The translations under genes were made by a program, and so were the position numbers. A stretch of DNA of 64,000 nt from a bacterium (lineage in GTDB: Bacteria; Patescibacteriota; Minisyncoccia; Phycocordibacterales; Phycocordibacteraceae), in NCBI GenBank assembly GCA_030651285.1, contig JAUSCN010000013.1, positions 28,448-92,447 on the forward strand, written 5' to 3'. The notes below the pieces were generated by a model, which worked only from the letters and a program-made list of their open reading frames with translations, was not told the origin of the DNA and searched no databases. Positions within the stretch are counted from its first letter, which is position 1, and the number at the start of each line of letters is the position of its first letter. Positions 20,861 to 60,911 of this stretch are shown in pieces.

Positions 20861-21011
20861 GTTTCTAGAACTAGTCTCAAAAATAATAGCTGCGTTTTAA
20901 CCGCAGACTTTTCATACTCGACAGCACAGTGAGACATTGTACCCGCCAGTACGATGAAGCATCGCATTGAATGTTTCACGTATAACTTACTCTCGGCAGT
21001 GTCATTTTAAG

Positions 21012-22493
21012 TCAACAAACGTGGTGTTTTTCCATTATATGGCGTATTTCCTCATCTTCTGCAGACTCACGACGTTGTTTCCCTGCTTCCCCAAGCTTTC
21101 TAAGGTCCTCATCAGTCATTCCAAGCAGTTCCTCCGTGCGCTTATCGAGGTATTCCTCCGTATTCTTACCGGAATCATCAAGTATTTCCTCAAGAAGCGC
21201 GTTAAGCGTCCAACCTATTCTAGGGCCAGGTTTCACCTGAAACTTAGCCATCAGGCGTGTCCCGTCGGTCTTGAGCATGGTTACTGATATAGGGTCTCTG
21301 AGCGCCTGCTCGACCATAGCCTTATACTTCCTAAATCTAAACGGCTGTTCTTTTGGTCTCCCAGTTCCGATACGGTCGCATATACGGAGATTGAGCAAGT
21401 CCCATACATTCTCCTCTCCGACGTTCTTTATCATCCTTCGTACCGCAGATAGGGTAATCTGCTCAGGATCAGAGAAGAACATGTGCCAGCGAACCAATTT
21501 TACGACCTTTTCTATCGTTTCACGTGAAAAACGCATGTCTTCCAGAGCTTTCTTTGTTACACGTGAACCAACTACCTCATGGCCATGAAAGGTCCAGTCC
21601 TTCTTTTCATCGGACCATCGACGGGTCTCTGGCTTAGAGATGTCGTGATATAAGCCCGCGAGACGCAGATCGAAGCCCCATTCCTTATCTGCAGCATGCT
21701 GCATTGTGCGGAGATTATGCTCAAAGACGTCGTACGAGTGGGCCTGATTCTGTTCCACGCCAATACCGCGCATAAGATCTGGAACAATGAACTCGAGAAT
21801 TCCCAGTCTTTGCGACAAAAGAATCGCGCTCATTGGCTGTCTTGATTTCAGAATTCTTACGAACTCTTCACGAACTCTTTCACGTGAAACGTGGCTTAAA
21901 TGCTTGCTATTTTCGCTTATAGCCGCTGCAGTACCGCTATCTATACCAAACTCAAGCTCAGCAATGAGTCGAACGGCGCGGAGCATACGCAATGCATCTT
22001 CGTTAAAACGCTCTGAAGCATTGCCGACGGCGCGGATAAGTTTGTCCTTTATGTCTTTTTGACCCTCATAGGGATCTACGAACTGTCCTTTAGACTCATC
22101 CATCGCAATCGCATTGATAGTGAAGTCCCGACGAGCCAAGTCTTCGAGTAGGGAAGTGCCAAACTCAACCTTGTCTGGTCGACGCCTATCGGAATAGTCG
22201 GATTCGGTTCGGTAGGGAGTTATCTCGACAATACTTAGCCGAGGATCCTCGGAACCCGTCTTTACACCAACAGTACCGTAATCATTTTCATAGAAAGAGT
22301 CAGGAAATACGGCCTGAATCTGCTCTGGAGTCGCATTAGTGGTGAAATCCCAGTCTTTCGGCTCTCGACCGATAATCAGGTCACGGACACAGCCTCCGAC
22401 CAGATACGAGTCGAATCCGGCACCTCGAAGAGACCCGCCAACCTTTGTTATTTCGACTGGAATACGGTAATCCATGGCAGAATCGTAGCACAA
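21012..22493 (-). CDS. cca: CCA-adding tRNA nucleotidyltransferase with C-terminal HD domain
   Basis: GGCVRD..RDFTINA PolyA_pol head, followed by an HD-domain region (LYHDISKP). The start may be the Met at 22475. Confidence 0.88.
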   Translation of the reverse strand: MCYDSAMDYRIPVEITKVGGSLRGAGFDSYLVGGCVRDLIIGREPKDWDFTTNATPEQIQAVFPDSFYENDYGTVGVKTGSEDPRLSIVEITPYRTESDYSDRRRPDKVEFGTSLLEDLARRDFTINAIAMDESKGQFVDPYEGQKDIKDKLIRAVGNASERFNEDALRMLRAVRLIAELEFGIDSGTAAAISENSKHLSHVSRERVREEFVRILKSRQPMSAILLSQRLGILEFIVPDLMRGIGVEQNQAHSYDVFEHNLRTMQHAADKEWGFDLRLAGLYHDISKPETRRWSDEKKDWTFHGHEVVGSRVTKKALEDMRFSRETIEKVVKLVRWHMFFSDPEQITLSAVRRMIKNVGEENVWDLLNLRICDRIGTGRPKEQPFRFRKYKAMVEQALRDPISVTMLKTDGTRLMAKFQVKPGPRIGWTLNALLEEILDDSGKNTEEYLDKRTEELLGMTDEDLRKLGEAGKQRRESAEDEEIRHIMEKHHVC

Positions 22494-31810: not shown

Positions 31811-31812
31811 TC

Positions 31813-33027
31813 ATGAAATTCCGAGCAAAAATACGAAAGGGCGGCGCTGATGAGTACACGAAAATCATCGAGGCGCCTTCCCGTTTTGCCGTATACGAAC
31901 AAGTACAGAAGGAAGGCGGCTTCGTAGTCGAACTCACGGAGGGGGATGGACGACTTAGACTTCCATCGTGGCTGTATTACAGCATCGGGACGGGCATCAA
32001 GCGCACCGAGATAATCCGTCTAGCAAAAAATCTCTCAGCAATGCTTGGTGCAGGTCTTGCTCTCTCACGCGCGCTTTCAGTCATCGAGCGGCAATCAAGC
32101 AACAAGCACCTGAAAACCGTCGTCACGGATATTTCCGAATCGATCAAGAAAGGCACATCATTCCATGCTGCCCTGGGAAAGTATCCAAAGGTGTTCCCGG
32201 CGCTTTTTGTCGCAATGGTTCGAGCCGGAGAAGAATCCGGATCGCTTTCTGATTCGCTCACGATAATCGGCGTCCAAATGGAGCGCTCCGAAGAGCTTAT
32301 ACGCAAGGTTAAAGGCGCGATGATCTATCCGTCGATCGTGATATCAGCAGTCCTCATCGTCGCAGTTCTGATGCTCATATTTGTCGTACCAACACTCACG
32401 AAGACATTTACTCAGCTCGGGGTGCAAGTACCTCTTGCAACGCGCGTTATCGTAGCCATTTCAAATTTTATGGCCGAGAACGTGATGGTAGTTTTCTTAG
32501 GGCTCGTTTCACTCATAATCGGCGGCATTGCATTCGTCCGCTCAAAAGAGGGGAGCGCAATCGTGCTTTCAACCTCTCTGTACATACCTATTATCGGAGA
32601 GCTTGTGCGAGAGACCTTCGCGGCTCGCGCATCACGCACAATCTCCTCGCTTCTTGCGTCGGGAGTACCGGTCCTTGATGCGCTCGCCATCACCAAAGAA
32701 GTCGTGCATGCTGGAGCATTCGCGAAAGTAGTTTCCGAAGCTGAGGAGCGCGTAAAAAAGGGGGAGCCGCTGTCTTCAGCATTTGTCGAACATTCAAAGC
32801 TCTACCCGATCCTGATGGGCGACATGCTCTCAGTGGGAGAGGAGACCGGAAAGGTCGCAGAAATGCTCCGACAGGTCGCAGAATTCTATGAGGCGGACGT
32901 CGCCGAGAGGACAAAAGACCTCTCTACCATCATCGAACCAATCCTCATGCTCGTCATCGGTTCATTCGTCGGCATCTTTGCAGTCTCGATGATCGCTCCG
33001 ATCTACTCGCTCTCCTCTGCCTTCTGA
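31813..33027 (+). CDS. pilC: GspF/PilC-family platform protein
   Basis: Two T2SS-F repeats with 3 TM helices. ATG lies 3 nt after the pilB stop. The longer track ORF from 31597 overlaps pilB and was trimmed. Confidence 0.9.
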   Translation: MKFRAKIRKGGADEYTKIIEAPSRFAVYEQVQKEGGFVVELTEGDGRLRLPSWLYYSIGTGIKRTEIIRLAKNLSAMLGAGLALSRALSVIERQSSNKHLKTVVTDISESIKKGTSFHAALGKYPKVFPALFVAMVRAGEESGSLSDSLTIIGVQMERSEELIRKVKGAMIYPSIVISAVLIVAVLMLIFVVPTLTKTFTQLGVQVPLATRVIVAISNFMAENVMVVFLGLVSLIIGGIAFVRSKEGSAIVLSTSLYIPIIGELVRETFAARASRTISSLLASGVPVLDALAITKEVVHAGAFAKVVSEAEERVKKGEPLSSAFVEHSKLYPILMGDMLSVGEETGKVAEMLRQVAEFYEADVAERTKDLSTIIEPILMLVIGSFVGIFAVSMIAPIYSLSSAF

Positions 33028-33028
33028 T

Positions 33029-33412
33029 ATGCACCTATCTCGCGGATTCTCGCTCATAGAAGTCACGGTTACGATCTTCATCGTTGGAATCCTGCTCCTT
33101 CTTCTCCAGGCAGTACTGCAGAGCAGCGTGCTCGTGCGCACAACGAAAAGCCAAGGGATCGCGCTTACTATTACCCGCAACGAGCTTGAGATACTGCGCG
33201 CCAGCGGCTATGCAGCCCTCCCACCAAGCGGCTCATTCTCAAACAGCCTCTTGAGCACGGTTCCTTCGGCAACAACGACACTCACAGTGAGTACTTACAA
33301 TGCCGGGACGAAACAGGTGATTGTGAGTGTCATCTGGAGAGAGCCGGGATCATCCGCTTCGAGCACCGTATCGCTCTCCACGCTTATCACTCACACTGGC
33401 GGACTTCCATGA
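33029..33412 (+). CDS. prepilin-type (type IV pilin-like) protein
   Basis: RG/FSLIEV cleavage-methylation motif with Glu+5, followed by a hydrophobic helix. Confidence 0.8.
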   Translation: MHLSRGFSLIEVTVTIFIVGILLLLLQAVLQSSVLVRTTKSQGIALTITRNELEILRASGYAALPPSGSFSNSLLSTVPSATTTLTVSTYNAGTKQVIVSVIWREPGSSASSTVSLSTLITHTGGLP

Positions 33413-33978
33413 CACTCACCCCCGCAAAGACAGCTCGCGCTTTCACACTTATCGAGACCGTGATCGTCGTCACGATCAGCGCCATCATGTTTACCACCAT
33501 TAGTGTCCTGATATACGACCTCAACAAGACTTCTGAATATCAGCAAACCGTCCTTCAGTCATCCGGCTCAGCAAGCGCGCTCGTAAAAGAAATAGAGTCC
33601 TTAGCTCTTCCGGCTGATGCTGTGCTCCAAACGCACACGTTTTCGGGCATAACCCGCACATCCACTTCGACCACACTCGTCCTTGAAATACCTTCCATCG
33701 ACAGCTCGGGAAACATCGTGCCGAGCGCGCATGACTATGCCGCCTTTTACACTGCGGGGACAGATGCGTATCGCATTCTTGAGGCAAATGCTTCGAGCCA
33801 GCGTGTCTCTGGCACAAAAAAACTCAGTTCCACGGTGAACTCGCTAACATTCTCTTATAATAATACTGACTTCTCTCAAGTAGACACTGTCATCGTCGAT
33901 GCGCAGATGCGGGCCCAGGTTAAGCAGGAACTCATCTATGATCACCGGCAACAGCAAATCCGCCTACGCAATCACTAA
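33409..33978 (+). CDS. prepilin-type (type IV pilin-like) protein
   Basis: A/FTLIETVIVV motif. ATGA overlap with the upstream gene. Confidence 0.75.
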   Translation: MTLTPAKTARAFTLIETVIVVTISAIMFTTISVLIYDLNKTSEYQQTVLQSSGSASALVKEIESLALPADAVLQTHTFSGITRTSTSTTLVLEIPSIDSSGNIVPSAHDYAAFYTAGTDAYRILEANASSQRVSGTKKLSSTVNSLTFSYNNTDFSQVDTVIVDAQMRAQVKQELIYDHRQQQIRLRNH

Positions 33979-33987
33979 TCCATTTAT

Positions 33988-35322
33988 ATGCGCCACACTT
34001 CCCGCACAGCAGCCCTAAACCAAGGCTATATCCTTGTATTAGCCCTCGTATTCCTCGGCATTTTTTTCACAGCGTCCGCAGCATATCTGAATTTCGTGAC
34101 CACATCGGCACGAAGTGCACGAGTAGATATCGCACAATCGCAAGCACTCGCGATCGCTGAAGCAGGCATGAACAAGGCTGTGTACCAGCTGAACCAAAAC
34201 CCTTCATACACCGGAGAGACCAACACCACATTCGGGGAAGGGGTATTTACCGTAACCGTTTCGAATATAAACTCCGTCACCAAACGAGTCACGGCGACAG
34301 GATATGTACCAAACAGCACGAACCCTACGGCGACAAAAACCATCAAGGCAGATGTGGGCATTAACGGTGCTGTCGTGTCGTTTCGCTACGGAGTTCAGGC
34401 GGGAATGGGAGGATTTTCGCTCGAAAATACTTCTTCCATAACGGGAAACGTATACTCTGGCGGATCCGTCATTGGGAGTAGTCAGAACTATATATATGGT
34501 GATGTCATCTCAGCAGGACCAAGCGGGGTCGTGTATGGCATCCATGCAACAAGTTCAGTGTACGCTCATACTATTGGAAATACTTCTAAAACCACCATCG
34601 TCGATAAAAACGCCTACTACGCAACAAGTAAAGTGAACACCACAGTAGGGGGAACTTCGTATCCAAACAGCCCCGACCAGGCAACTACATCATTACCGAT
34701 CTCAGATGCACAGATCGCGGAATGGGAGACTATAGCCGCCAATGGCGGCACCGCAGCGTGCTCGAGTGGTTCCTATGCCATTTTGTCTGGTGCCGTAAGT
34801 CTTGGGCCCGTAAAAATCCCTTGCAACCTGACCATCAGCGGTACTTCCGTAGTGACACTGAACGGACACGTTTGGGTTACGGGAAATATCATCATTCAAA
34901 ACTCTGCTGTGGTGAAAATAGCACCATCTTTGGGTGCCGAAAACATCACCATCATCGCTGACAATCCTTCAAACAGACTTACCAGCAGCACAATAGCTGT
35001 AAAAAATACGGCTAGCTTTCAAGGCTCAGGAACGGCTGGCTCATTTATTCTACTCGTCTCTCAGAACAACAGTGCCGAGAACGGAGGCTCAGTCAATGCT
35101 ATTGAATTAGAGAACAGCGTTTCGGCAATGATCGCGTATGCGGCTCACGGACTTATCCCGCTCGAGAACACTGTTTCTCTGAAAGAAGTCACAGCGTATA
35201 AGATCACTTTGAAAAACTCAGCTAACGTACGGTACGACACCGGACTTATAAGCACCGTGTTCGATTCTGGACCAGGCGGAAGCTGGAGCTTCATTCCTGG
35301 CACCTACGCGATTACACGGTAG
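33988..35322 (+). CDS. PilX-N-like large minor pilin / tip protein with beta-helix-like repeats
   Basis: N-terminus GYILVLALVFLGIFFTASAAYL..AQSQALAIAEAGMNKAV. The C-terminus is rich in repetitive G/S/T/V strands. Confidence 0.6.
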   Translation: MRHTSRTAALNQGYILVLALVFLGIFFTASAAYLNFVTTSARSARVDIAQSQALAIAEAGMNKAVYQLNQNPSYTGETNTTFGEGVFTVTVSNINSVTKRVTATGYVPNSTNPTATKTIKADVGINGAVVSFRYGVQAGMGGFSLENTSSITGNVYSGGSVIGSSQNYIYGDVISAGPSGVVYGIHATSSVYAHTIGNTSKTTIVDKNAYYATSKVNTTVGGTSYPNSPDQATTSLPISDAQIAEWETIAANGGTAACSSGSYAILSGAVSLGPVKIPCNLTISGTSVVTLNGHVWVTGNIIIQNSAVVKIAPSLGAENITIIADNPSNRLTSSTIAVKNTASFQGSGTAGSFILLVSQNNSAENGGSVNAIELENSVSAMIAYAAHGLIPLENTVSLKEVTAYKITLKNSANVRYDTGLISTVFDSGPGGSWSFIPGTYAITR

Positions 35323-43996: not shown

Positions 43997-44097
43997 GGGG
44001 CGACAGGGAATTGATTAGCGACCCCGCTCCCTATTGTCCACTACGTACGTGCTATTGGTGCACGAAACAGGAAGACGCGACTGCTATACTGAAGCAG

Positions 44098-44520
44098 ATG
44101 GAGTATCACGTTCCGCAGTTCATCGAAGTCGAAGATAAGATCGTCGGACCTCTCACTCTCCGACAATTCATCTACCTTGCCGGAGCGGGTGGGTTCTGTG
44201 TCGTCTTCTTCGTGTACCTACCAGCTATTGCTGCATTCCTCCTCTCTGCCCCGATGGTGGGTCTTGCGGCGGCGCTCGCTTTTTATAAAGTAAACGGAAA
44301 ATCGTTCATCGAGATACTCGAGGCCGGATTTAATTACTACACAGGAGCGAAGCTTTTTCTCTGGATGCATCACGAACCAAAAAAGGAAGATCCAAGTCTT
44401 GCGGTCGCCGCCGCCACTGCAGCAGAAAAAGCGGCCCAGAAGCGCACTGCTCAGAAGCTTACGCGCGGCAAACTGACAGAGCTCGCATGGTCGCTCGATA
44501 TTAAGTCGCCACAACGATAA
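44098..44520 (+). CDS. PrgI-family (VirB3-like) T4SS membrane protein
   Basis: YHVPQFIEVEDKIVGPLTLRQFIYLAGAG followed by two TM helices. The start is set at the ATG (MEYHVPQF). Confidence 0.7.
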   Translation: MEYHVPQFIEVEDKIVGPLTLRQFIYLAGAGGFCVVFFVYLPAIAAFLLSAPMVGLAAALAFYKVNGKSFIEILEAGFNYYTGAKLFLWMHHEPKKEDPSLAVAAATAAEKAAQKRTAQKLTRGKLTELAWSLDIKSPQR

Positions 44521-44521
44521 T

Positions 44522-45160
44522 ATGGCCACCAAGCAAGCAGCTAGCCCTACTCAGCAGTTCGTACCGGTCAAAGAAATCCGGAATGGCGTCATTATTCTCA
44601 AAGACGGCGGCTATCGAGGCATACTCATGTGCTCTTCAATCAATTTTGGACTCAAGTCAGCTGATGAACAGCACGCGATTACGCTCGGCTTCCAAAATTT
44701 CCTCAATACGCTCGATTTCTCAATACAGATCTTAGTGAATTCGCGCAAAATGGACCTGCGCCCGTATATTTCTCTCCTTGAAACCAAAGCGGCTGATCAA
44801 AGGACAGAACTTATGCGAATCCAGTTGCGAGAATATATCGAATTCGTGCGCTCTTTCGCGGACCAAGCAAACATCATGACCAAATCGTTCTATGTCATCG
44901 TGCCATATGCACCACACGTCTCTGCTACCAAAGCAGTCGGGTTCTTGCAAAAGAAAAATGTCGCAGCTGAAAAAGCGGCTGCCCAAACTTCATTTGAACA
45001 GGATCGCGCACAACTTGAACAGCGCCTCTCGCTCGTTGCGGGTGGACTTGCTGGTACTGGCGTACGAGCAGTTCCGCTCGGCACCGAAGAAGTCATCGAG
45101 CTCCTGTACCGCTCATTCAACCCAGGAGAGCTCGAAAACCCGATCCACCTAGACGCGTAA
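44522..45160 (+). CDS. T4SS-associated protein resembling the extreme N-terminal region of Gram-positive VirB4/TraE-type ATPases
   Basis: FVPVKEIRNGVIILKDGGYRGILMCSSINFGLKSADEQ..FQNFLNTLDFSIQILV. It is in the same reading frame as the next gene, separated only by TAA plus two codons. Confidence 0.55.
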   Translation: MATKQAASPTQQFVPVKEIRNGVIILKDGGYRGILMCSSINFGLKSADEQHAITLGFQNFLNTLDFSIQILVNSRKMDLRPYISLLETKAADQRTELMRIQLREYIEFVRSFADQANIMTKSFYVIVPYAPHVSATKAVGFLQKKNVAAEKAAAQTSFEQDRAQLEQRLSLVAGGLAGTGVRAVPLGTEEVIELLYRSFNPGELENPIHLDA

Positions 45161-45166
45161 TACCCT

Positions 45167-46987
45167 ATGTCACTACTCGACTTTCTAAACGGCAAGAAAA
45201 AAGAGGAGTTTTCGGCAATAATGCCGGTACTACCTAAAGATATTTATAAACAAGGCTCTCTCGACCTTGTTGATACTATCGCTCCGGCAGCACTCAAAAT
45301 AAGTTCGCGGGAAATCGAACTTGGTGAGAAGTTTGCTCGCGTCTTCTACACGGTCTCCTATCCGCGATTCCTTTCAGACAGCTGGTTCTCTCCCGTCATC
45401 AACCTCGACAAGGTACTCGATATTTCCATATTCATCCATCCAATAGAAACTGAGACTGCTCTCCGTGCTTTCCAGAAGAAAGTCGCTGAGGTACAGAGCC
45501 AGATTAGCGAACGCGAATCGAAAGGGCTCGTGCGCGACCCATTACTTGATACTGCTTACCAAGATCTCGAGAATCTGCGCGACAACCTGCAACAGGCACA
45601 GGAAAAACTATTCGATGTTGGACTCTACCTTGCGCTCTATGGCGATTCGAAAGAAGAGATTGAGAAGACAGAAGGGGACATCCGCGGCATACTCGACGCG
45701 AAGCTTGTGTACACCAAACCAGCCCTCTTTCAGCAAGAGCAAGGATTCCGTACCTGCCTCCCGCTCGGCACTGACGAACTCCTTGTGAATTCGAAACTAG
45801 ACTCCTCGCCGCTCTCGTCGATCTTTCCATTTGTCTCGTTTGACCTCACAAGCGATCGCGGCATCCTGTACGGCATCAACCGCCATAACTCTTCACTCAT
45901 CCTCTTCGACCGCTTCTCGCTCGAAAACTACAATTCCGTCATCTTCGCTAAGTCCGGTTCCGGTAAAAGCTATGCGACGAAACTCGAGCTTCTGCGATCA
46001 CTCATGTTTGGCACCGACATCATCGTGATCGATCCAGAGCGAGAGTATGAGCAGCTCGCAGAAGCGACAGGTGGTCGATCATTCCACATATCCCTGTCAT
46101 CGATGCATCATATAAATCCTTTCGACCTCCCACCGGTCAGGGAAGATGAGGATCCGAAAGACATTCTCCGCTCCAACATCATCGCACTCGTCGGACTCTT
46201 CCGCATCATGCTTTCCGGTCTTTCTCCGGAGGAGGACGCGATTATCGATCGTGCCATCAGCGAGACATATGCGCTCAAAGATATTACTGGTGACAGTGAC
46301 TTCACGGGCGCAGAACCACCAACACTCTCAGACTTCGAACAGGTGCTCTCCGGAATGGAGGGGAGCGAATCACTCGTCGAGCGTCTCTCAAAATACACGC
46401 GTGGTACGTGGGCAGGATTCCTCAACCAGCCAACAAACATCAATCTCGATCAGCAGTTCGTCGTCTTCTCAGTACGCGACATGGAGGACGAACTCAAGCC
46501 GGTCGCGATGTACATCATTACGCACTATATATGGAATGCCGTACGCCACGACCTCAGAAAGCGTCTACTCGTCATCGATGAAGCATGGTGGATGATGAAA
46601 AGCGAAGACACCGCTTCCTTCCTCTACTCAGTCGCGAAGCGTGGCCGCAAATACTATCTGGGTGTCTGCACCATTACTCAGGACGTCGAAGACTTCCTCA
46701 AGAGTCCGTACGGGCGTCCGATCCTTACGAACTCATCGCTGCAACTACTTCTCAAACAATCTCCGACGACAATCGACGTCCTGCAACAAACCTTCAACCT
46801 GACCGATGAGGAAAAATATCTCCTGCTTGAGGCTGGAGTGGGGGAAGGACTCTTCTTCGCAGGACTGAAGCATGTGGCTATCAAGATAGTCGCAAGCTAC
46901 ACGGAAGACCAGATCATCACCTCAGACCCTTCCCAAGTCCTTGCGATAAAGCAGGAGAAGGATCGCCATGCCTCCTCGCAGAATTAA
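45167..46987 (+). CDS. virB4: VirB4/TraC-family T4SS ATPase
   Basis: N-domain pattern IAPAALKISSREIELGEKFARVFYTVSYPRF, Walker A AKSGSGKSY and Walker B LLVIDEAWW. Confidence 0.88.
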   Translation: MSLLDFLNGKKKEEFSAIMPVLPKDIYKQGSLDLVDTIAPAALKISSREIELGEKFARVFYTVSYPRFLSDSWFSPVINLDKVLDISIFIHPIETETALRAFQKKVAEVQSQISERESKGLVRDPLLDTAYQDLENLRDNLQQAQEKLFDVGLYLALYGDSKEEIEKTEGDIRGILDAKLVYTKPALFQQEQGFRTCLPLGTDELLVNSKLDSSPLSSIFPFVSFDLTSDRGILYGINRHNSSLILFDRFSLENYNSVIFAKSGSGKSYATKLELLRSLMFGTDIIVIDPEREYEQLAEATGGRSFHISLSSMHHINPFDLPPVREDEDPKDILRSNIIALVGLFRIMLSGLSPEEDAIIDRAISETYALKDITGDSDFTGAEPPTLSDFEQVLSGMEGSESLVERLSKYTRGTWAGFLNQPTNINLDQQFVVFSVRDMEDELKPVAMYIITHYIWNAVRHDLRKRLLVIDEAWWMMKSEDTASFLYSVAKRGRKYYLGVCTITQDVEDFLKSPYGRPILTNSSLQLLLKQSPTTIDVLQQTFNLTDEEKYLLLEAGVGEGLFFAGLKHVAIKIVASYTEDQIITSDPSQVLAIKQEKDRHASSQN

Positions 46988-47627
46988 TCCGCCGCCCGAA
47001 GTGATGACCTGGGGGAAATCCTCAGCGATTCTTGCGGTTTCGGTATCAGCCATCTTCGACACGCTTCGTATAGCATGTGGATTCCTGTGGCTTTTTGGCC
47101 CTGCGCTTGCCGGAATCTATTGCCAACAGAAACTTGGCGGCGCATTAGGAGAGACGATAGCCACAGCGGTCTGTGCCACTGGCGCAACAACACTTGGGGT
47201 CACCGCATCTCCTGTATTCATGCTTTTTGGCACAGTCTTAGCTATAGCTATGGGCATTTTCGGATGGCTGATTGTTATAGCCATAATCATCTTCACGAAC
47301 GAGCGCCTTATGAAAGAGAATTTCAGTCATGTTTTCTGGCTTGCAGGAAGCCTTCTCGTGAGCGAGATACCTATCATCGGATCGATACCAGCTCTCACTG
47401 CCACTGTCATCAAACTGTATTCCGACCAAATAAAGAGAGATAAAGAAATGCTGCAAACATACGAGGCTGATATCGTAGCAGCCAAACAAGAAGAGCGCGA
47501 TCAGCACACCGCACTACTTTTCCAGATGCAGAATGCGCGAACACAAGAGGCGCAAGAAGCAGCGTATGAGAAACAGGCCGAGAAGGAAGCGGAGGAAATC
47601 CCCGACGAGATGCGTATGGCCGCATAA
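46968..47627 (+). CDS. hypothetical polytopic membrane protein with charged coiled-coil tail (possible VirB6 analogue)
   Basis: About four TM helices followed by a Q/E/K-rich tail. It overlaps virB4 by 20 nt. Confidence 0.55.
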   Translation: MPPRRINPPPEVMTWGKSSAILAVSVSAIFDTLRIACGFLWLFGPALAGIYCQQKLGGALGETIATAVCATGATTLGVTASPVFMLFGTVLAIAMGIFGWLIVIAIIIFTNERLMKENFSHVFWLAGSLLVSEIPIIGSIPALTATVIKLYSDQIKRDKEMLQTYEADIVAAKQEERDQHTALLFQMQNARTQEAQEAAYEKQAEKEAEEIPDEMRMAA

Positions 47628-47656
47628 CCGCACCGTGCAGGCTATATACTAGAGAC

Positions 47657-48643
47657 ATGCGCTTCATTATTTTCGCAGCTCTCTTGATTCTCACGCTTCC
47701 TGTTTCTGTCAGTGCACAATCTTTTGGGGGATCCATGGACGCCACTCCGTTTACGCTTTCTGTAAACCCGCAATATCCAGAACCGTACAGCGATGCTGTC
47801 ATCTCTCCGCTTTCAAACTCGCTCGATCTTGCAAACTCGACCATGACCGTCTCAGTAGGAGGAAAGATCATCCATAAAGGCACTGCACAACCTATCGCCA
47901 TAAAGACTGGCAAAGCGGGAAGCGTCACGACAGTAAAAGTCACCATCTCCTCGGGGGGTATAACCAACAGCGAATCCCTCTATATACAGCCCCAGGATGT
48001 CGTCCTGATCGCAGAACCTATTTCATCAGCGCCGCCACTATACCCCGGCAAATCGCTCGTGCCCCTAGAAGGGAGTGTGCGAGTTGTTGCTGTAGCGAAT
48101 TTCAGAGATGCTCGCGGAGGCATACTCAAGCCATCTACGCTTTCTTACGCATGGGCGGTAGACAATACTCAGATCGCAAGCGCGTCAGGCATCGGAAGAT
48201 CATCACTCCTGGTAGCGTCACCCCTCCAATACCGCGCTCGATCTGTTTCTGTTACAGTCACGAGCCAGAACGGCACCCTCGTCGGCGGCGCGGCGATCTC
48301 GCTCACCTCTCAGGAACCACTGGTGCGCATCTACCGGAACGATCCTCTGTTAGGTATCCGTTTTGACCATGCGCTTTTCGGAGAATATGCCATCGCAGGA
48401 GCGGAGACTACACTGTACGGCGCGCCGTTTTCTTTCCCTACCACCACCGGCGCGCCGTTCCTTGATTGGAATCTGAACGGAGCAAGGGCCCAGACAGGTA
48501 ATTCCATAACTCTGCGCCCATCTGGAAGCGGGGAAGGGGACGCTTCGCTCACACTTTCCGCATCTTCAGATACCTCTGCCGCAGCAATCGCAGACCTTAC
48601 CCTCCTATTCGGTAAGAGCGCCACATCTCTCTTTGGCCTATGA
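47657..48643 (+). CDS. hypothetical secreted protein
   Basis: Signal peptide MRFIIFAALLILTLPVSVSAQ. Beta-rich, with no family recognised. Confidence 0.55.
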   Translation: MRFIIFAALLILTLPVSVSAQSFGGSMDATPFTLSVNPQYPEPYSDAVISPLSNSLDLANSTMTVSVGGKIIHKGTAQPIAIKTGKAGSVTTVKVTISSGGITNSESLYIQPQDVVLIAEPISSAPPLYPGKSLVPLEGSVRVVAVANFRDARGGILKPSTLSYAWAVDNTQIASASGIGRSSLLVASPLQYRARSVSVTVTSQNGTLVGGAAISLTSQEPLVRIYRNDPLLGIRFDHALFGEYAIAGAETTLYGAPFSFPTTTGAPFLDWNLNGARAQTGNSITLRPSGSGEGDASLTLSASSDTSAAAIADLTLLFGKSATSLFGL

Positions 48644-49365
48644 CCCTCATTAAAAATCTCAATCATCGTATGACGCGCAAAAATACGACCCTCACTTCTC
48701 GCGAAATAACGCTATTTCTGCTCGTATTAGTTCCCGTACTGCTTTTCGGACTCTCGCCCGCAGCTTCTGCTCAAGGATTTGTTCCTCTTGCTCCGATACC
48801 GAACCTCACCGACACACAGTCTACTGGAGGCGGGCTCGCAGTATTCTTCAACAATCTCTACAAATACCTCATTGGCCTTGCTGCGACCCTTGCAGTGATC
48901 CAGATCATCCGAAGCGGCATTGAGATCGCTTGGAACCAAGACGATGTCAGCAAGATGAAAGATGATAAAGGGAAAATCTACAATGCAATCGCTGGACTTG
49001 CTTTGGTACTTTCGCCCGCGCTAGTCTTTTCCATTATCAATCCACAGATTTTGGACCTCTCGATCAGTCTTGCGCCGATCGATCTTTCCGTAAGATCAGC
49101 AACGCCAGCGCCGACACCCGAAGGACTGAATAAGACTAGCTCTATGACCGGACAGCGGTCGAATCTAGCCCCCGCAAATATGAACGGAGCTGGTCGAAGC
49201 AATAACATGTACACAGATCCTGCTTCTATCCCGAATGGACAATGGTGCTATACCCAAGAAACAACATTTGTCTGCCTTCCTGACCAAAGCGGCTGCGACA
49301 ATATGTACAGATTCGCAGGAGCTTCAGCAACGGGATCTTGCAGGCAATACCCAATTACGAATTAA
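48640..49365 (+). CDS. VirB2/TrbC-like T4SS pilin with a Cys-containing C-terminal extension
   Basis: Signal/TM region, then AQGFVPLAPIPNL, followed by two hydrophobic helices (LIGLAATLAVIQIIRSG and IAGLALVLSPALVFSIINP). This is typical of the CPR T4SS-pilin family, from recollection. There is an extra tail of about 100 aa with 4 Cys. Confidence 0.6.
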   Translation: MTLIKNLNHRMTRKNTTLTSREITLFLLVLVPVLLFGLSPAASAQGFVPLAPIPNLTDTQSTGGGLAVFFNNLYKYLIGLAATLAVIQIIRSGIEIAWNQDDVSKMKDDKGKIYNAIAGLALVLSPALVFSIINPQILDLSISLAPIDLSVRSATPAPTPEGLNKTSSMTGQRSNLAPANMNGAGRSNNMYTDPASIPNGQWCYTQETTFVCLPDQSGCDNMYRFAGASATGSCRQYPITN

Positions 49366-49371
49366 AATCCT

Positions 49372-50571
49372 ATGCGCCGCACACTTATCATCGCCTCGAT
49401 TGTTCTAGTCTCTCTCGGGATCGGGATTGCTGTATATTATTTCCTCCTTCCAAGCTCACCAGAGACGACCGGCACACCCACTGACAATCCATTGCCAGTA
49501 GCAGGGAATAGGACTCCAACCCCCGGAGAGATCGCTGCAGGAAATTCTGGCACTAGCGAAAGTCCCACCTCCGTTTCAGCTCGACTCGTCAAAATAACAC
49601 CTGGACCCGTCGCGCTCGGCGAAGCTGTCCTAGACATAAAAGCTGCTGCGGCAAGCTCTTCACCGGAAGTCGCCATCAATTTCGTCGAGCAACAGAGCGG
49701 AAACATCTATTCTTATCGAACAAGGGAAGGGACGCTCACACGCACCTCGAACAAAACCATACCTGGTATTGCGACCGCAGCTTGGCTCCCGAATGGAAAG
49801 ACGGTATTTGCTCGCTACCTTTCAGGAACCGATTTTTCTACTACTAACACCTACGCACTTCACTCAGATGGTTCGGAGGGATTCTTCTTGCCTCAGGACC
49901 TTGCAGGTATAGCTGTTTCCTCCACAAGCATCCTCATGCTTGCTTCTGGGTCTAATGGGTCCTCTGCTTCTCTCGCACGCACCGACGGATCACGTGCCAC
50001 GACATTATTCACGACACCTCTTTCCGCATTACGTGTCACATTTGCAGGCAAAAATCAGTACCTTGCATTTACGAAGCCTGCCGCGACGCTCGCTGGAAGC
50101 GCGTATCTCGTCGATAGCTCTGGGAACTTCTCTCGCGTCGCGGGTCCAGAGAACGGCCTCACCGCCCTTGCGAGCCCGTCAGGGAAGTGGGTACTCGTAA
50201 GCACTGTTTCAGAGGGGGCAATGAGCATGAAGCTCGTAAACACAGCAACAGGCGACACTACCCCTCTTCCTGTCGCTACCATCACCGACAAATGCATATG
50301 GACTACCGATGAGACCACTATCTACTGCGGAATCCCTAAAAACCCTGCTCCTGGGAAAAACTATCCTGACGATTGGTATCAAGGAGCCGTGGCGTTCTCG
50401 GACCGGATATGGAAAATTCAAGTTTCCGGCCGCTATGCGCAACTAGTGCTCGACTTTACAGCTGAAGCAAAAACGTCCCTCGACGCGGAATCCCTTGCCA
50501 TCAACCCTTCTGGAACTACGCTCGTATTTGTAAACAAGAACGACGGATCTCTTTGGTCGTATCAACTCTGA
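49372..50571 (+). CDS. hypothetical anchored protein, beta-propeller-like
   Basis: TM anchor, a P/T-rich linker, and repetitive beta-strand segments reminiscent of TolB-like propellers. Confidence 0.5.
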   Translation: MRRTLIIASIVLVSLGIGIAVYYFLLPSSPETTGTPTDNPLPVAGNRTPTPGEIAAGNSGTSESPTSVSARLVKITPGPVALGEAVLDIKAAAASSSPEVAINFVEQQSGNIYSYRTREGTLTRTSNKTIPGIATAAWLPNGKTVFARYLSGTDFSTTNTYALHSDGSEGFFLPQDLAGIAVSSTSILMLASGSNGSSASLARTDGSRATTLFTTPLSALRVTFAGKNQYLAFTKPAATLAGSAYLVDSSGNFSRVAGPENGLTALASPSGKWVLVSTVSEGAMSMKLVNTATGDTTPLPVATITDKCIWTTDETTIYCGIPKNPAPGKNYPDDWYQGAVAFSDRIWKIQVSGRYAQLVLDFTAEAKTSLDAESLAINPSGTTLVFVNKNDGSLWSYQL

Positions 50572-51296
50572 TCCGAAGTTAGCACCGTGCGCCGTACGTG
50601 CCATTCCTGTATCGCACCTGCGATGTTCGTAGTGATGAAGTACAGCGCGATTGCGCTAGAAGTCGTATAGGAAATGACCCCTATAAGGAAAGGGAAGACG
50701 TATTTGAGCTGCATGCCCATGACTTTCTGAAAATCCGCCTGCATCCCACTACCGCTCGGAGCGGCTTTCATCGTCCCCTGAAGGGCCATATGAGCCTGTA
50801 AGAACTGCGTGAGGCCCGCCACAATAGCCAGAATGAGGCTTTTCCCCATTATTGATATGAATCCTAGGAACAGGAGCGATACGGAACCAGGAACCGGTGT
50901 AAATGAATAAAGTCGAGCGGTATTAATCATCGTAAACGGCTCATACAGAAAGACCCAATACAGAGCGAGAAGGACTGGGATCTGGATAAACACCGTAAGG
51001 ATGCTCGAAAACGGATTTACTTTCTCTTCTCGATAGAGTGCGAGGGTTTCTAGAGCCTCTTTTTCCTTATCGCCCTTATATTTTTCCTTCAATGCTTTCA
51101 ATTTTGGCTCTAGATTCTTCATCGCAAGCTGTGTGCGGGCTGCAGAGAGCGAAAATGGTAGCAGCACGACCCGAATGACAATAGTGAGGAGGATAACAGC
51201 AACACCAACATCAGAGCCTGGGACGAGCGCTACGAGCGCTACGAGCGCGTTGTAAATCGGGTCATAGAAAAATGCGTGGAAGAAAGTTGATATCAC
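50562..51296 (-). CDS. yidC: membrane protein insertase YidC (short form)
   Basis: Five-TM layout with the lysine-rich KLKALKEKYKGDKEK loop and a syntenic position next to rnpA. Confidence 0.85.
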   Translation of the reverse strand: MISTFFHAFFYDPIYNALVALVALVPGSDVGVAVILLTIVIRVVLLPFSLSAARTQLAMKNLEPKLKALKEKYKGDKEKEALETLALYREEKVNPFSSILTVFIQIPVLLALYWVFLYEPFTMINTARLYSFTPVPGSVSLLFLGFISIMGKSLILAIVAGLTQFLQAHMALQGTMKAAPSGSGMQADFQKVMGMQLKYVFPFLIGVISYTTSSAIALYFITTNIAGAIQEWHVRRTVLTSDQS

Positions 51297-51310
51297 AGAC
51301 GTATTGTACG

Positions 51311-51622
51311 TTACTGGTTAATTTTAGAAAGGAGAGTGCCAAGCTCCTCCTTAATGTCCTTGTATTGTATATCTTTTACCGACGCTTTGGGAAAAATGAT
51401 GAGGGAGGTTGGGTGGGGAAGGGACTTTAACGCCGCAAGTACGCGGCGCTTTATCAGATGCCTCGTTACTGAGAGGCGCGCTACTTTCTTTGGGACGATG
51501 ACAGCGAAGCCCCTCCCTTCTTTAGGGAGGACTGCGGTGAAGTGTTTAGACGAGACCCGACGGCCCGCCGGGAGGGCGGCGGAGATATATTCACGAGAAA
51601 GTCGCTCTCGGCGCGGAAACAC
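51311..51622 (-). CDS. rnpA: ribonuclease P protein component
   Basis: Basic 103-aa protein (VIVPKKVARLSVTRHLIKRR) immediately downstream of rpmH. Confidence 0.85.
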   Translation of the reverse strand: MFPRRERLSREYISAALPAGRRVSSKHFTAVLPKEGRGFAVIVPKKVARLSVTRHLIKRRVLAALKSLPHPTSLIIFPKASVKDIQYKDIKEELGTLLSKINQ

Positions 51623-51628
51623 AGAAGA

Positions 51629-51766
51629 TTACACTGCGAGCTTCGCTCGACCAATACGGCGGCGGCCCTGCAAAATCTTGCGTCCTGAGCTGGTTTTCTT
51701 GCGTGCGAGGAACCCGTGCGTTGTTGCGCGCTTTCGTTTCTTCGGCTGATAGGTCCTTTTCGACAT
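51629..51766 (-). CDS. rpmH: 50S ribosomal protein L34
   Basis: Hand translation gives [45 protein letters not shown]. At 45 aa it falls below the ORF-track cut-off. Confidence 0.92.
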
Positions 51767-51866
51767 GGTGGATGAAAAGATTAGGTTGTGCACATGATAC
51801 TAACAGGTTCTCCACGAAACGCCAGTGTGGCTTGTCTATATAAGGAAGCGTATACTCCAAAGCATT

Positions 51867-53219
51867 ATGAACAAAGGAGATCCTCGTGAACTTTGGGAAT
51901 ACGTTCTTACTCAAGTCGAACTTTCAATATCACCCGCTAATTTCAATACTTGGTTTCGTAATAGTTTCATTACAAAGATAACTGAGGACGGGGTAGTGCA
52001 CATCGGCGTACCCAGCCAGTTCTTTAAGGATTGGTATTTGAAAAAGTTCAACACAATGCTCCTGAAGATCATTCGGGATGTCTCCTATGAGTTCAGAAAT
52101 ATCGAATATTCGATAGTGAAAGATGAAAATCGTAAGGTACAGAAGGAAATTAAGCTCCCTAAAGGGGCTATGGAACTCCCGCTTGAGGATTTTTATATAA
52201 ATAAGAGCGATAACCTCAATCCTCGCTACACATTTGATACATTCGTCATCGGCTCATTCAACAATCTTGCTTACACCGCCGCACAAGCCGCCCTAGAGCG
52301 TCCAGGAATTACCTACAATCCATTATTTATCTATGGTGATACAGGAAGAGGGAAGACTCACCTTATCCAGGCTATAGGGAATCAATACAAGAAATTGTAT
52401 CAGGGGAGAAAAGTCTTCTATCTCACCTCAGAAAAATTCGTTGTTGATTATACTGATTCGGTGCAAGCTGGTTCAGCAAACCGATTTAAGGATAAATATC
52501 GCCAATACGACCTCCTCATCATGGATGATATTCAATTCCTCTCCAAGAAAGAAAAGACTCAGGAGGAGCTTTTCCACCTCTTCAACGCTCTCTACGATAC
52601 AAATAAGCAAATCATCTTTTCTTCTGATCGAGCTCCAGCGGCTATCCCAGACATCGCAGACCGCCTCAAGGGTCGCCTCGCTAGTGGAATGACAGTGGAT
52701 ATTAGTGAACCTGACCCAGAGTCTCGTATGGCTATAGTGCGTAAAAAAGCCGCCTCTCATGGGGTGATTCTGTCAGATGAAGTGGTTGATTACGTCGCTA
52801 CAACTATGAATGGTTCCATACGAGAATTAGAGGGTATGGTGAATAGTATTATCTGTCATGCTCAAGTAAAGGGTGCTGCTCCTGATATAGCTGAAGTACG
52901 CCAATCTCTCCGCTCATTCACACGCCCTCAAAAGAATATTTCAGTGAAGAATGTCGTCGACAAGGTTGCTGAATTCTACGGAATCGATGAGGAGAGTATT
53001 TATGAGAAGACTCGCCGTAGGGAAGTCGTACGTCCTCGGCAGATAATCATGTATCTTCTTCGTGAGGATTTTCATATTTCCTATCCGACTATTGGTACAA
53101 AACTTGGTGGTCGCGACCACACGACGGTTATCCACTCCTGTGAAAAAATAAAGCGTGAAATCATTGTGGATAGCGAGTTATCACAAGAGATCCAAAATAT
53201 CCGCACCCTACTTGTATGA
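51867..53219 (+). CDS. dnaA: chromosomal replication initiator DnaA
   Basis: ATG-start form MNKGDPRELWEYVL.. It carries AAA+ Walker A GDTGRGKTHL, LLIMDDIQF, and the domain IV motif TLGGRDHTTVIHSCEKI. Confidence 0.93.
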   Translation: MNKGDPRELWEYVLTQVELSISPANFNTWFRNSFITKITEDGVVHIGVPSQFFKDWYLKKFNTMLLKIIRDVSYEFRNIEYSIVKDENRKVQKEIKLPKGAMELPLEDFYINKSDNLNPRYTFDTFVIGSFNNLAYTAAQAALERPGITYNPLFIYGDTGRGKTHLIQAIGNQYKKLYQGRKVFYLTSEKFVVDYTDSVQAGSANRFKDKYRQYDLLIMDDIQFLSKKEKTQEELFHLFNALYDTNKQIIFSSDRAPAAIPDIADRLKGRLASGMTVDISEPDPESRMAIVRKKAASHGVILSDEVVDYVATTMNGSIRELEGMVNSIICHAQVKGAAPDIAEVRQSLRSFTRPQKNISVKNVVDKVAEFYGIDEESIYEKTRRREVVRPRQIIMYLLREDFHISYPTIGTKLGGRDHTTVIHSCEKIKREIIVDSELSQEIQNIRTLLV

Positions 53220-53330
53220 TGTTTATACGTTCTATATCAACATATTGTTTAGAATCTAAGAATCAAAATAGTGAGCAGGTACGCTTTATTTTAAGTTTAT
53301 CCACTTATCAACAGCCCTAATAGAATCCGT
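53220..53330. promoter_or_regulatory. candidate oriC segment (dnaA-dnaN spacer)
   Basis: AT-rich 111-nt spacer with abutting DnaA-box-like 9-mers TTATCCACT (53297-53305) and TTATCAACA (53305-53313). A further TGTGGATAG lies at 53165-53173 inside the dnaA 3' end. Confidence 0.5.
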
Positions 53331-58931: not shown

Positions 58932-59219
58932 TTATTGACCAAGGGAAGGTGGGTCAATAACGGGCTCTCTTAGATCCTTTTCATACTCCTCTAGGCAAGG
59001 CTTGACGGCTTCGGACGTTTCCCCAAGGATTTTGTGGTTTATTACTTCGGTAATGAGGCTGCGGAACTCCTCAGGTGTCTCGTCTACCCCGCGTAATGCG
59101 GGTTTTTGCCTGGGGGAGTATGGATGGGATTTTTTCAGATAAACGTACGTAGTGGTGCGCCGTGCGCTATCTCGGAATGTCGACGGTTGAGAGGACTTCG
59201 GAGAGGGAGGTGTCGCCAT
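58932..59219 (-). CDS. hypothetical protein (weak call)
   Basis: 95-aa ORF that fills the gap between pilB-like and ruvB. Its 5' part overlaps the pilB-like 3' end by 53 nt, so the true start may lie further downstream. No family was recognised. Confidence 0.25.
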   Translation of the reverse strand: MATPPSPKSSQPSTFRDSARRTTTYVYLKKSHPYSPRQKPALRGVDETPEEFRSLITEVINHKILGETSEAVKPCLEEYEKDLREPVIDPPSLGQ

Positions 59220-60837
59220 TCAGGGCTTTGATGATTCCATCTTGTGCCATAGTGAGATATCCCTGCTTTGCCGCAGCTTTTGCGATTTCGTTTTCAGGCG
59301 GGTTTTCCCGCAGAAAGTTTGCGAGCTCGTCATCCATGAATATTGCTTCGTACAATCCGACGCGCCCTTTGTATCCGGTCTCGGCCTCGCTTGTTGGAGC
59401 AGGCTCCCAGACCGTCTCAATCTTTTCAGGAATCAGGGTCTTGTCAGCAAGCGGTTCGAATACTTTCGCGATCATCTGCTTTTCGTCCGCAGTGAGCGGC
59501 CGTTCTTTTTTCTGGTTTGGGTCTAGCTTACGCACGAGACGCTGGGCCATCGACACGGTAACTGCGGAACCGAAGGATTTCGGATCTGCACCAAGGTCGA
59601 CAAGGCGAGGGAAGGTGCCGGCCGCATTGTTTGTGTGAAGGGTGGAGAATACAAAGTGTCCGGTGAGCGCTGCTTGGATGGCGATGTTAGTCGTTTCCTG
59701 GTCGCGAATTTCGCCAACCATGATGATGTCTGGGTCTTGCCGCACGATCGACTTGAGTCCTTCGGCAAACGTATACGTCTCTCCTGAGACTTGGGTCTGT
59801 ACGATGCCGTCGAGGTGGTACTCCACAGGGTCTTCGATGGTGATGATCTTTATCTCCGGGGAGTGAATCTCACGGAGGAATGAATACAGGGTAGTCGTTT
59901 TTCCGCTTCCAGTAGGGCCAGTCGTAAGAAGCATGCCGTTCGGGCGGCGGATTTCCGTCTCAAGACGAGCGAGGAGTTTCGGGGGGATGCCAAGTTCCTT
60001 GTAGGAAACCTTGGTCGCCTCGGGGTCGAGAATACGCATCACGATTGACTCACCAAAGTTGCCTGGGATGAACGATACACGCATCTCGATTTGACTCGTT
60101 CCTTTTTCGATACTGAAACGGCCGTCTTGTGCTCGGTTAGTAACATTGAGCTTCATTCCCGAGAGGAGTTTTATACGTGAGTTGAGTAGGTGATAGGTCT
60201 GAGCATCAAATGAATACAGCTCAGAAAGAAGTCCATCGATGCGCAATCGAAGGACTGTTTTTCCCTCGCTCGGCTCGAAGTGTATGTCGGATGCGCGAAG
60301 AGCGAACGCTCCCGCGAGTACGAGCTCGAATGTGCGCGAAACGCGCTCAAGAGCTTTCAAGGCGGCTGTGCTTTCCAGCTCTTGTAGGAGTTTTTTTCGT
60401 GGCTCGGCTGCTTGGGATATGTTTGCAAGGATTTCTGGGGCAACAACGAAGACGCCTGGCTTCGATTGTGTGGTGGTAGTAAGGTCGCTGTAGCGCGCAA
60501 GCAGTTTATCAAGGCTTTTCCTTGAAACGAGATATTTCTGGATCTCGAATCCTCGCTCCGCGAGATCTTCGAGAAGTTTCGGAAGCGCAGTGTTATTTGG
60601 ATTATGAATCGCAAGAGACAGTACTTTCGCAGCTTTCATGAATGCGGCTGCCTCAGCAGTATGGGCGACTTCTTCAGGGACGACACGAAGCGCATCGACA
60701 TCAACTTCTTTGAGCGAGAGGTCGATGTAAGACATGCTGTATTTCTCGGAGAGAATTTGTGCAATATCTTCTTCTTCGTGCTCGCGCACCTGCGCGAGCT
60801 TTGTTTTTTCGTGCTCAGTATCAAAAGGGAGATCCAT
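59167..60837 (-). CDS. second GspE/PilB-family secretion/pilus ATPase
   Basis: GSPII_E N-terminal domain, Walker A GPTGSGKTTT, VGEIRD and TGHFVFSTLHTN. The start is set at MDLPFDTE. Confidence 0.88.
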   Translation of the reverse strand: MDLPFDTEHEKTKLAQVREHEEEDIAQILSEKYSMSYIDLSLKEVDVDALRVVPEEVAHTAEAAAFMKAAKVLSLAIHNPNNTALPKLLEDLAERGFEIQKYLVSRKSLDKLLARYSDLTTTTQSKPGVFVVAPEILANISQAAEPRKKLLQELESTAALKALERVSRTFELVLAGAFALRASDIHFEPSEGKTVLRLRIDGLLSELYSFDAQTYHLLNSRIKLLSGMKLNVTNRAQDGRFSIEKGTSQIEMRVSFIPGNFGESIVMRILDPEATKVSYKELGIPPKLLARLETEIRRPNGMLLTTGPTGSGKTTTLYSFLREIHSPEIKIITIEDPVEYHLDGIVQTQVSGETYTFAEGLKSIVRQDPDIIMVGEIRDQETTNIAIQAALTGHFVFSTLHTNNAAGTFPRLVDLGADPKSFGSAVTVSMAQRLVRKLDPNQKKERPLTADEKQMIAKVFEPLADKTLIPEKIETVWEPAPTSEAETGYKGRVGLYEAIFMDDELANFLRENPPENEIAKAAAKQGYLTMAQDGIIKALNGDTSLSEVLSTVDIPR

Positions 60838-60881
60838 GAAATGTAATGATAGCAGACTCGGAAATAGGGTAGGAGTGGCAC

Positions 60882-60911
60882 TTGACAATATGTAATATAT
60901 GGTAGTATAAT
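60882..60911 (+). promoter_or_regulatory. consensus sigma70 promoter
   Basis: TTGACA, an 18-nt spacer, then TATAAT. A DnaA-box-like TGTGGATAG (60915-60923) lies just downstream. Confidence 0.55.

Follow-up and report, generated by a model that had tools for sequence, protein, structure and literature searches.

Positions 44098 to 50571 of the window (the whole 64,000-nt stretch of the Patescibacteriota contig JAUSCN010000013.1 that was analysed) hold seven co-directional open reading frames (ORFs) on the plus strand, here named g1 to g7 (Table 1). Rechecking of the ORF coordinates gave spacings of 1, 6, -20, 29, -4 and 6 nt from g1 to g7, and none of these gaps is big enough to house an additional gene. 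The initial annotation of this module had its coordinates, strand and tight spacing (30 nt or less) right, but it had counted eight genes instead of seven, and two signal-peptide proteins where, apart from the pilin and the anchored propeller, there is one plain one (328 aa). None of the seven ORFs is disrupted, the catalytic motifs are present, and the GC content of the module (0.48-0.54) is the same as that of its flanks. The genes form a tightly packed unit beside oriC, consisting of PrgI/VirB3, a split VirB4, a VirB2-type pilin and three lineage-specific envelope proteins. This region is very probably the VirB4-proximal operon of a type IV secretion system (T4SS) of the Patescibacteria clade, derived from the conjugation machinery of monoderms (MPF_FATA), chromosomally located and stripped of DNA-processing parts.

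Table 1. Features of the T4SS operon and of the adjoining origin region, in window coordinates.
Feature	Position	Strand	Evidence
Candidate extended -10 promoter TGCTATACT	44082-44090	+	TATACT kept at fixed spacing across loci
g1, PrgI/VirB3-like small membrane protein, 140 aa	44098-44520	+	PF12666
g2, TrsD-like detached VirB4 N-terminal domain, 212 aa	44522-45160	+	NF045971 positions 1-165
g3, VirB4 motor ATPase, C-terminal two-thirds, 606 aa	45167-46987	+	NF045971, PF19044, 4AG5
g4, small polytopic membrane protein, 219 aa, orphan family	46968-47627	+	Transmembrane helices, no HMM family
g5, secreted protein with three Ig-like domains, 328 aa	47657-48643	+	AlphaFold2
g6, VirB2-type T4SS pilin, 241 aa	48640-49365	+	Orthologue matches PF18895/TrbC
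g7, membrane-anchored beta-propeller, 399 aa	49372-50571	+	AlphaFold2, Foldseek
yidC	50562-51296	-	Pfam gene-call table
rnpA	51311-51622	-	ORF translation
rpmH	51629-51793	-	ORF translation
dnaA	51825-53219	+	Pfam gene-call table
DnaA-box-like cluster, dnaA-dnaN spacer	53128-53313		Four near-consensus sites within 190 bp; context 50562-53330

The first three genes were assigned by profile searches with hidden Markov models (HMMs). PrgI (g1), a hydrophobic hairpin with a charged tail, matched PF12666 with 40.7 bits (cut-off 27; E = 3.6e-10). The g2 product matched the N-terminal part of NF045971, the model of CD1110-family VirB4 (2.5e-7), and weakly matched NF041427 (TrsD); it is listed as PF26593 (TraC-like) in the gene-call table, and a 797-aa VirB4 from Clostridium, which is not split, aligns with it colinearly over residues 30-197. 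The g3 product covered positions 183-733 of NF045971 (381.6 bits, cut-off 325) and matched PF19044 (8e-26) as well as the solved C-domain of VirB4 (PDB 4AG5, E = 1.1e-45). It carries a Walker A motif AKSGSGKS (45947-45970) and a Walker B motif LLVIDE (46565-46582), and its best plasmid relatives are CD1110 VirB4 proteins of Firmicutes and Actinobacteria with ~35% identity. Together, g2 and g3 make up one VirB4, with g2 corresponding to the TrsD-like protein of the literature. A scan of a genome collection yielded more than 537 loci with VirB4 relatives, and the window's proteins were mapped on the best 80, each from a different species. PrgI precedes VirB4 in 78 of 81 loci, and the TrsD-like protein is present in 80 of 81. 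In the window g2 and g3 lie in one frame with a TAA between them. A nonsense mutation or recoding at this codon was considered and rejected, because the two genes are split in 80/80 related loci, in differing frames and with TAA, TAG or TGA as the stop. The division of VirB4 is therefore ancient and fixed.

The core of the pilin g6 (residues ~1-140, nt 48640-49059) comprises a signal peptide, which is long, and a pair of hydrophobic helices; a hypervariable C-terminal tail of 101 aa that contains four Cys follows (nt 49060-49362). By itself the window protein remained below threshold (TrbC 6.9e-5, 23.4 bits against 27.9; T4SS_pilin 6.9e-4). At the family level the assignment was solid, as PF18895 was matched by 45 of 50 positional orthologues (best 3e-11) and TrbC by 22 of 50. 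The signal peptide, the mature end GFVPLxPIPGL, the two hydrophobic helices and an INPxILNLS motif are conserved, and the cores are 44-76% identical, while the identity of the tails equals the shuffled baseline. Tail length varied from 11 to 295 aa across the orthologues (L002-L072), and the number of Cys was even in 36 of 37. The tails could not be aligned even where the VirB4 proteins of the species share 93% identity, and one orthologue (L061) has a YkuD L,D-transpeptidase domain as its tail. Searches of metagenome contigs with the pilin core drew in relatives, and those with the tail did not. In VirB2 and TraA pilins both termini lie outside. By analogy, the tail would face the cell exterior, and its variability makes it a candidate for host recognition.

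The remaining three products belong to no HMM family. The g4 protein has three to four transmembrane (TM) helices and a charged coiled tail, overlaps the VirB4 stop by 20 nt and evolves fast; neither Pfam nor NCBIfam scans returned a match, and a search with the family profile found hypothetical proteins of Patescibacteria only. In most loci the gene after VirB4 is a multi-TM ORF of 120-290 aa; conserved within the family are a D in TM1, the motif ExxPxxxxxPxxT and, at the C-terminus, AAND..IPE..AA. A further short C-terminal motif, an invariant DPYRE(P), ends the ~220-250-aa protein encoded 5' of PrgI in other loci (A7 family, L022:8253-8903 and relatives); both motifs may be docking peptides. 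The g5 protein was modelled by AlphaFold2 (predicted local distance difference test, pLDDT, 73) as a signal peptide followed by beta-sandwiches resembling immunoglobulin (Ig) or fibronectin type III (FnIII) domains at residues 33-121, 141-227 and 242-318. For g7 the model (pLDDT 82.8, predicted template modelling score 0.79) shows a TM helix at the N-terminus (residues 2-24), then a Pro/Thr/Gly linker that is disordered (26-62), and a propeller of about seven blades (65-399). Profile searches of the PDB with g5 and g7 gave no significant match. Structural relatives specific to T4SS were sought for both proteins, and the searches returned generic Ig arrays for g5 and TolB- or lyase-type propellers for g7, the latter by Foldseek (oligogalacturonate lyase 3PE7, TM-score 0.57-0.60; TolB, E ~3e-9). 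The two genes are present in 75 (g5) and 64 (g7) of 81 loci. The family calls of the initial annotation for PrgI/VirB3, the 212-aa VirB4 N-terminal protein, the VirB4 ATPase, the VirB2-type pilin and the propeller-like anchored protein thus all held; its statement that at least four members lacked a nameable family was upheld as four.

The candidate promoter TGCTATACT ends 7 nt 5' of the PrgI ATG. When 78 related loci were compared, ~60 had the TATACT box at -13/-14 relative to the start of PrgI, and the TGn extension was found in 38. The box is kept whatever gene lies upstream, and the surrounding sequence is unconserved, which suggests a conserved candidate promoter. From its spacing to the ATG, a leaderless or near-leaderless operon transcript is predicted. 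The box emerged from the comparison of loci only; a generic scan of the module for sigma-70 promoters and terminators gave background levels. In co-cultured Paceibacterales, the unknown genes with the highest expression include those for T4SS pilins and Ig-fold proteins (PMC10936435).

The synteny of the module was analysed across candidate phyla radiation (CPR) genomes, as had been proposed. All of the best 80 VirB4 loci come from metagenome-assembled genomes of Patescibacteria (Kaiserbacteria, Paceibacterota, Parcubacteria) and share 73-93% protein identity in VirB4. The order PrgI-g2-VirB4-(TM)-g5-pilin-g7-yidC(-)-dnaA-dnaN-penicillin-binding protein is kept in ~60 of them, and yidC, rnpA, rpmH and dnaA recur as neighbours in 59-65 of 81 loci. 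VirB4 has diverged less than the replication proteins next to it: over its 73-93% range, DnaA varies between 52 and 91% and DnaN between 32 and 83%, and VirB4 is still ~74% identical at loci where DnaA is at ~53% and DnaN at ~37%. In metagenome contigs from the same groundwater, VirB4 drew many related species at a nucleotide identity of at least 80%; g4, g5, the pilin tail and g7 drew hardly anything but the genome itself. Purifying selection on the unit is strong.

The position next to the replication origin was also borne out. The dnaA gene starts 1.25 kb beyond the end of the module, the cumulative GC skew has its minimum at ~50-51 kb, and a cluster of DnaA-box-like sites lies at 53.1-53.3 kb. 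Over the whole window, the number of near-consensus DnaA boxes (16 against 10.7 expected) is not above chance, and this cluster alone is suggestive. The T4SS operon is transcribed head-on to replication, because it lies on the plus strand to the left of the origin. The same orientation applies to ~20 kb of plus-strand genes that precede the operon left of the skew minimum (30053-50571, including type IV pilus genes, tpiA, pgk, recJ and comEC). At the right-hand border, the stop codons of g7 and yidC overlap convergently (50562-50571). A second ATPase of the T2SSE family is encoded on the other side of the origin (59167-60888).

A fixed chromosomal position bears on the question of whether the module belongs to a mobile element. 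A decaying or cryptic integrative conjugative element (ICE) of Gram-positive type, which has lost its relaxase, type IV coupling protein (T4CP) and integrase or has them outside the window, would account for a VirB4 of the CD1110 conjugation family and for the finding that its closest relatives outside the CPR are from Firmicutes, where they are encoded by conjugative plasmids and ICEs. At 10650-13169 the window codes for a tyrosine recombinase, the toxin-antitoxin pair RelB/YafQ and a RhuM/Fic protein. This recombinase is 30 kb distant, however, and its position is unrelated to the module. The ORFs are intact, their GC content does not depart from the flanks, and the place next to yidC/dnaA is identical in ~60 species with DnaA identities of 52-91%. 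The only tRNA genes of the window lie at 22.5-24.9 kb, 20 kb from the module. No relaxase, VirD4/TcpA, VirB11 or VirB8/9/10 was found among the larger ORFs of the window covered by the gene-call Pfam tables and Pfam scans; oriT was not searched. Neither integrase or tRNA flanks nor a GC island was detected at the module; att repeats were not searched. Across Patescibacteria, relaxases were reported in only 103 of 3,035 surveyed genomes (PMC12102498). The fixed position in ~60 species, the lack of a detectable relaxase or VirD4 and the distance of the tRNA genes rule out an ordinary ICE, and even a decayed one is extremely improbable. The initial annotation was thus right that none of these conjugation proteins can be recognised, and a relaxase and T4CP with element boundaries, which it had named as the sign of an ICE, did not turn up among the scanned genes. 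By its genomic context, the locus is best described as a vertically inherited core machine and not as an ICE. Apart from the module, the window shows a stretch of low GC content (0.41-0.44) at 14078-21000, beside the recombinase, RelB/YafQ and RhuM/Fic genes, with genes for a glycosyltransferase and for a 1081-aa protein with heparinase-II/III and polysaccharide-deacetylase domains; this stretch is possibly an acquired surface-polysaccharide island.

The seven genes do not represent the complete system. Clustering of ORFs upstream of PrgI revealed a conserved co-directional block in 46-48 related loci (L022:2439-8903 and L027-L081, 5' of PrgI); its genes were noted in L082 as well (15310-21578). 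The block starts with uvrD and ksgA, after which come genes for four proteins: one of ~340 aa containing a TSP3 repeat, a secreted one (~520-660 aa), a polytopic one (~750-800 aa) and a cytoplasmic one (~220-250 aa). PrgI is the next gene. PF04610 was matched by 10 of 46 members of the polytopic family (best 1.9e-7), and the L022 member scored above the TrbL_4 gathering score, which identifies the protein as an extended VirB6/TrbL homologue. Profile searches of the PDB with three families of the upstream block gave no significant match. In the window no polytopic VirB6/TrbL subunit is present. The small g4 protein was considered for this role and ruled out: it matched no HMM, hhalign against the CD1112 VirB6 gave a probability of 0.2, and its profile found hypothetical proteins only. 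Since the genuine VirB6 homologue of the relatives is a different protein of ~750-800 aa, g4 is not the VirB6 of the system.

In the sub-lineage of the window, PrgI is preceded instead by RecJ, RNase H, ComEC, superoxide dismutase, L28 and an M50 peptidase. Contigs of a sister strain, 99.3% identical to window positions 2370-14043, carry ksgA-p338-p664-p748-p250 after uvrD, on the opposite strand and ~40 kb from PrgI, a place beyond the bounds of the window. The cluster was split by an inversion, one breakpoint of which falls exactly at the border of p250 and PrgI. The strain of the window differs from its sister at the 3' end of uvrD (~2370), where genes for a membrane protein and a spermidine-synthase-like protein lie to the left of uvrD (1-2370); this junction is real, because one Logan contig spans it at the depth of the module. 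The module 44098-50571 is thus the VirB4-proximal half of a system that comprises seven genes here and four elsewhere. Its own predicted promoter before PrgI would make the operon separable from the VirB6 block. Because the inversion replaced the ancestral uvrD-ksgA neighbours, the ComEC/RecJ neighbourhood is secondary and lineage-specific.

This history is relevant for a possible function in DNA or nucleotide import, in which the T4SS would work in reverse like ComB of Helicobacter pylori or the archaeal Ced system and feed ComEC, ComM and RecJ. ComEC is encoded 2 kb upstream, RecJ and ComM lie within the window, and, as the initial annotation had noted, these genes share the 64 kb with a type IV pilus set. 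The absence of a relaxase or T4CP from the scanned genes of the window would be compatible with such a machine, as would the lack of nucleotide synthesis in these genomes, and the role has been raised in the literature (PMC11665869). In the class ABY1, T4SS loci sit with comF, recG and radA (PMC12102498). The adjacency to ComEC and RecJ, however, was found in only 21-22 of 81 loci, all of this sub-lineage, and it arose by the inversion that displaced the uvrD-ksgA-...-VirB6 block. In Southlakia, competence needs type IV pili and ComEC, and a comEC deletion is viable although the T4SS is essential (Wang et al. 2023, summarised in PMC12857230). Hence, the essential role of the T4SS there is not ComEC-dependent uptake. 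The CedB model matched the window VirB4 in the P-loop region only (32.9 bits against a cut-off of 700). We therefore consider import to be quite unlikely as the function of the locus. The proposal of a DNA-uptake or cell-contact machine instead of a conjugation system stood in its non-conjugative part, and host contact is favoured; DNA uptake, which had been based on the secondary ComEC/RecJ adjacency, was not supported.

The kind of system found here has been described before, and almost all of the ultra-small Patescibacteria have it beside the origin of replication. Quinonero-Coronel et al. 2025 (Microb Genom 11:001409; PMC12102498) surveyed 3,035 Patescibacteria genomes and found VirB4 in 2,417. 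The Patescibacteria VirB4 proteins form a monophyletic clade nested in MPF_FATA, TrsD, PrgI/VirB3, VirB6 and VirB2-like pilins are encoded near virB4, and in Paceibacteria and Microgenomatia the T4SS locus is close to dnaA, dnaN, rnpA and rpmH (PMC12102498). The window agrees with the survey in the following features: a VirB4 of MPF_FATA type, a TrsD-like protein, PrgI/VirB3 and a VirB2-like pilin on the chromosome near dnaA, without a relaxase or T4CP nearby. It differs in that the other neighbours, left unannotated (grey) in the survey, here encode a small TM protein, an Ig protein of three domains and a propeller with a membrane anchor, and in that VirB6, mostly near virB4 in the survey, is separated from the VirB4 operon in this sub-lineage. 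The candidate put forward by the initial annotation, a relaxase-less VirB4 T4SS, is therefore a correct rediscovery of a system whose whole picture had already been published (PMC12102498).

Function is best documented in the saccharibacterium Southlakia epibionticum, in which transposon sequencing showed that epibiotic growth cannot do without the T4SS genes (Wang et al. 2023, Cell 186:4803; PMC10633639). In the tables of that study, PrgI is followed by a 293-aa protein and then by a 612-aa VirB4, as in the window (PMC10633639). This order of PrgI, a hypothetical protein of ~290 aa and a VirB4 of ~610 aa indicates that the Southlakia VirB4 is split in the same way. The T4SS of strain ML1 (SEML1_0006-0019) likewise has VirB2-type pilins and no recognisable coupling protein or relaxase. 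Saccharibacteria differ by an array of six pilins, all short, by a VirB6-like protein that exceeds 1000 aa, by an NTF2/VirB8-like protein and by the peptidase and lysozyme genes after virB4. The window has instead a single long-tailed pilin, the Ig-array protein and the propeller, and no VirB8-like or VirB1-like gene was recognised in it; essentiality is known from Southlakia only.

The MPF_FATA systems of Firmicutes (CTn2/CD1110 type, e.g. Clostridium botulinum pCDC3875) share with the window a VirB4 at ~35% identity and above the CD1110 cut-off, a PrgI just upstream and a monoderm architecture that lacks VirB7/9/10. The plasmid pCDC3875 has an unsplit 797-aa VirB4, VirD4 (CD1115), a 260-aa VirB6 (CD1112), an SLT-type VirB1 and a MOBP relaxase, and no pilin. 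The window has none of these extra parts, but a VirB2 pilin is added. ComB of H. pylori and archaeal Ced are similar as relaxase-less, VirB4-based machines, of which ComB acts with ComEC and Ced imports DNA. ComB, however, has the outer-membrane parts VirB7-10, and the ComEC linkage of the window is lineage-specific and secondary; Ced is set apart by the P-loop-only match to CedB.

Reviews describe the role of the Patescibacteria T4SS as "completely unknown" and offer effector delivery or ComB-like uptake as ideas (PMC12857230, PMC11665869). We infer that the locus most likely encodes a pilus or conduit that is powered by VirB4 and serves contact and exchange with the host. Hexameric VirB4 would be docked by PrgI and the TrsD-like N-domain at the membrane, where the extended VirB6/TrbL homologue, encoded elsewhere in this lineage, would provide the platform, perhaps together with the small g4 protein. 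VirB4 would then pull the Sec-inserted pilin out of the membrane and polymerise it, giving rise to a pilus or a short conduit across the thin wall. The pilin tail at the outer surface, the Ig-array protein and the anchored propeller would mediate passage through the wall and binding to the host surface. Such a machine would serve attachment to, and exchange with, the host cell and not conjugation.

Attachment might also be the sole function. VirB4 would in this case build only a filament or anchor on the surface by which the epibiont stays fixed to its host, and nothing would be translocated. In canonical VirB and F systems VirB4 alone suffices for pilus biogenesis, and no coupling protein was found among the scanned genes of the window. 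The hypervariable pilin tail with its even number of Cys is typical of surface recognition modules, and Ig-like and propeller ectodomains are present. For adhesion and motility these genomes already have type IV pili, however, with PilB, PilC and a pilin encoded in the window, and the retention of an extended VirB6 channel subunit in the relatives is hard to explain without transport. A purely adhesive organelle moreover overlaps with the host-contact machine proposed here instead of excluding it. We regard it as unlikely. The type IV pilus set itself spans 30053-35322 and comprises the PilB ATPase, the PilC platform protein, an N-methyl pilin and two or three unknown genes.

Several observations weigh against a machine for contact and exchange. 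No VirB8-like or VirB1-like component was recognised in the window, and VirD4-like genes are far from virB4 in most Patescibacteria (PMC12102498). RNA evidence was sought, and the sequencing runs that hold the sequence are groundwater DNA only. A long pilus is uncertain, because a tail of 100-300 aa on every subunit may block the canonical packing of the VirB2 helix. The roles given to g4, g5 and g7 are guesses, since their structural relatives are generic or none were found.

The feature is real, strongly conserved and non-conjugative, and its kind is already described. As the system was reported between 2023 and 2025, the find is biologically important and not new; modestly new are the splitting of the cluster, the tail of the pilin, the folds assigned to g5 and g7 and the conserved promoter. 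Text searches of the 2025 survey (PMC12102498) found neither a hypervariable Cys-rich pilin tail nor a propeller. Tentatively, and with more doubt than confidence, the Paceibacteria T4SS pilin could be a fusion of pilin and adhesin, in which the VirB2 core polymerises and a diversifying, disulfide-bonded ectodomain sets host specificity; novel components that span the wall would be supplied by the Ig-array protein and the propeller, and the operon would be expressed as a leaderless transcript from a class-wide promoter. If true, this would be a T4SS architecture, with an Ig-array protein and an anchored propeller, that is not seen elsewhere. Before that of Patescibacteria, no T4SS had been shown to be essential for the organism that carries it. 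The locus represents a compact, well-defined Paceibacteria version of this system and offers handles for complex prediction, cryo-electron tomography of the few Paceibacteria in culture and the linking of pilin tails to hosts in metagenomes.

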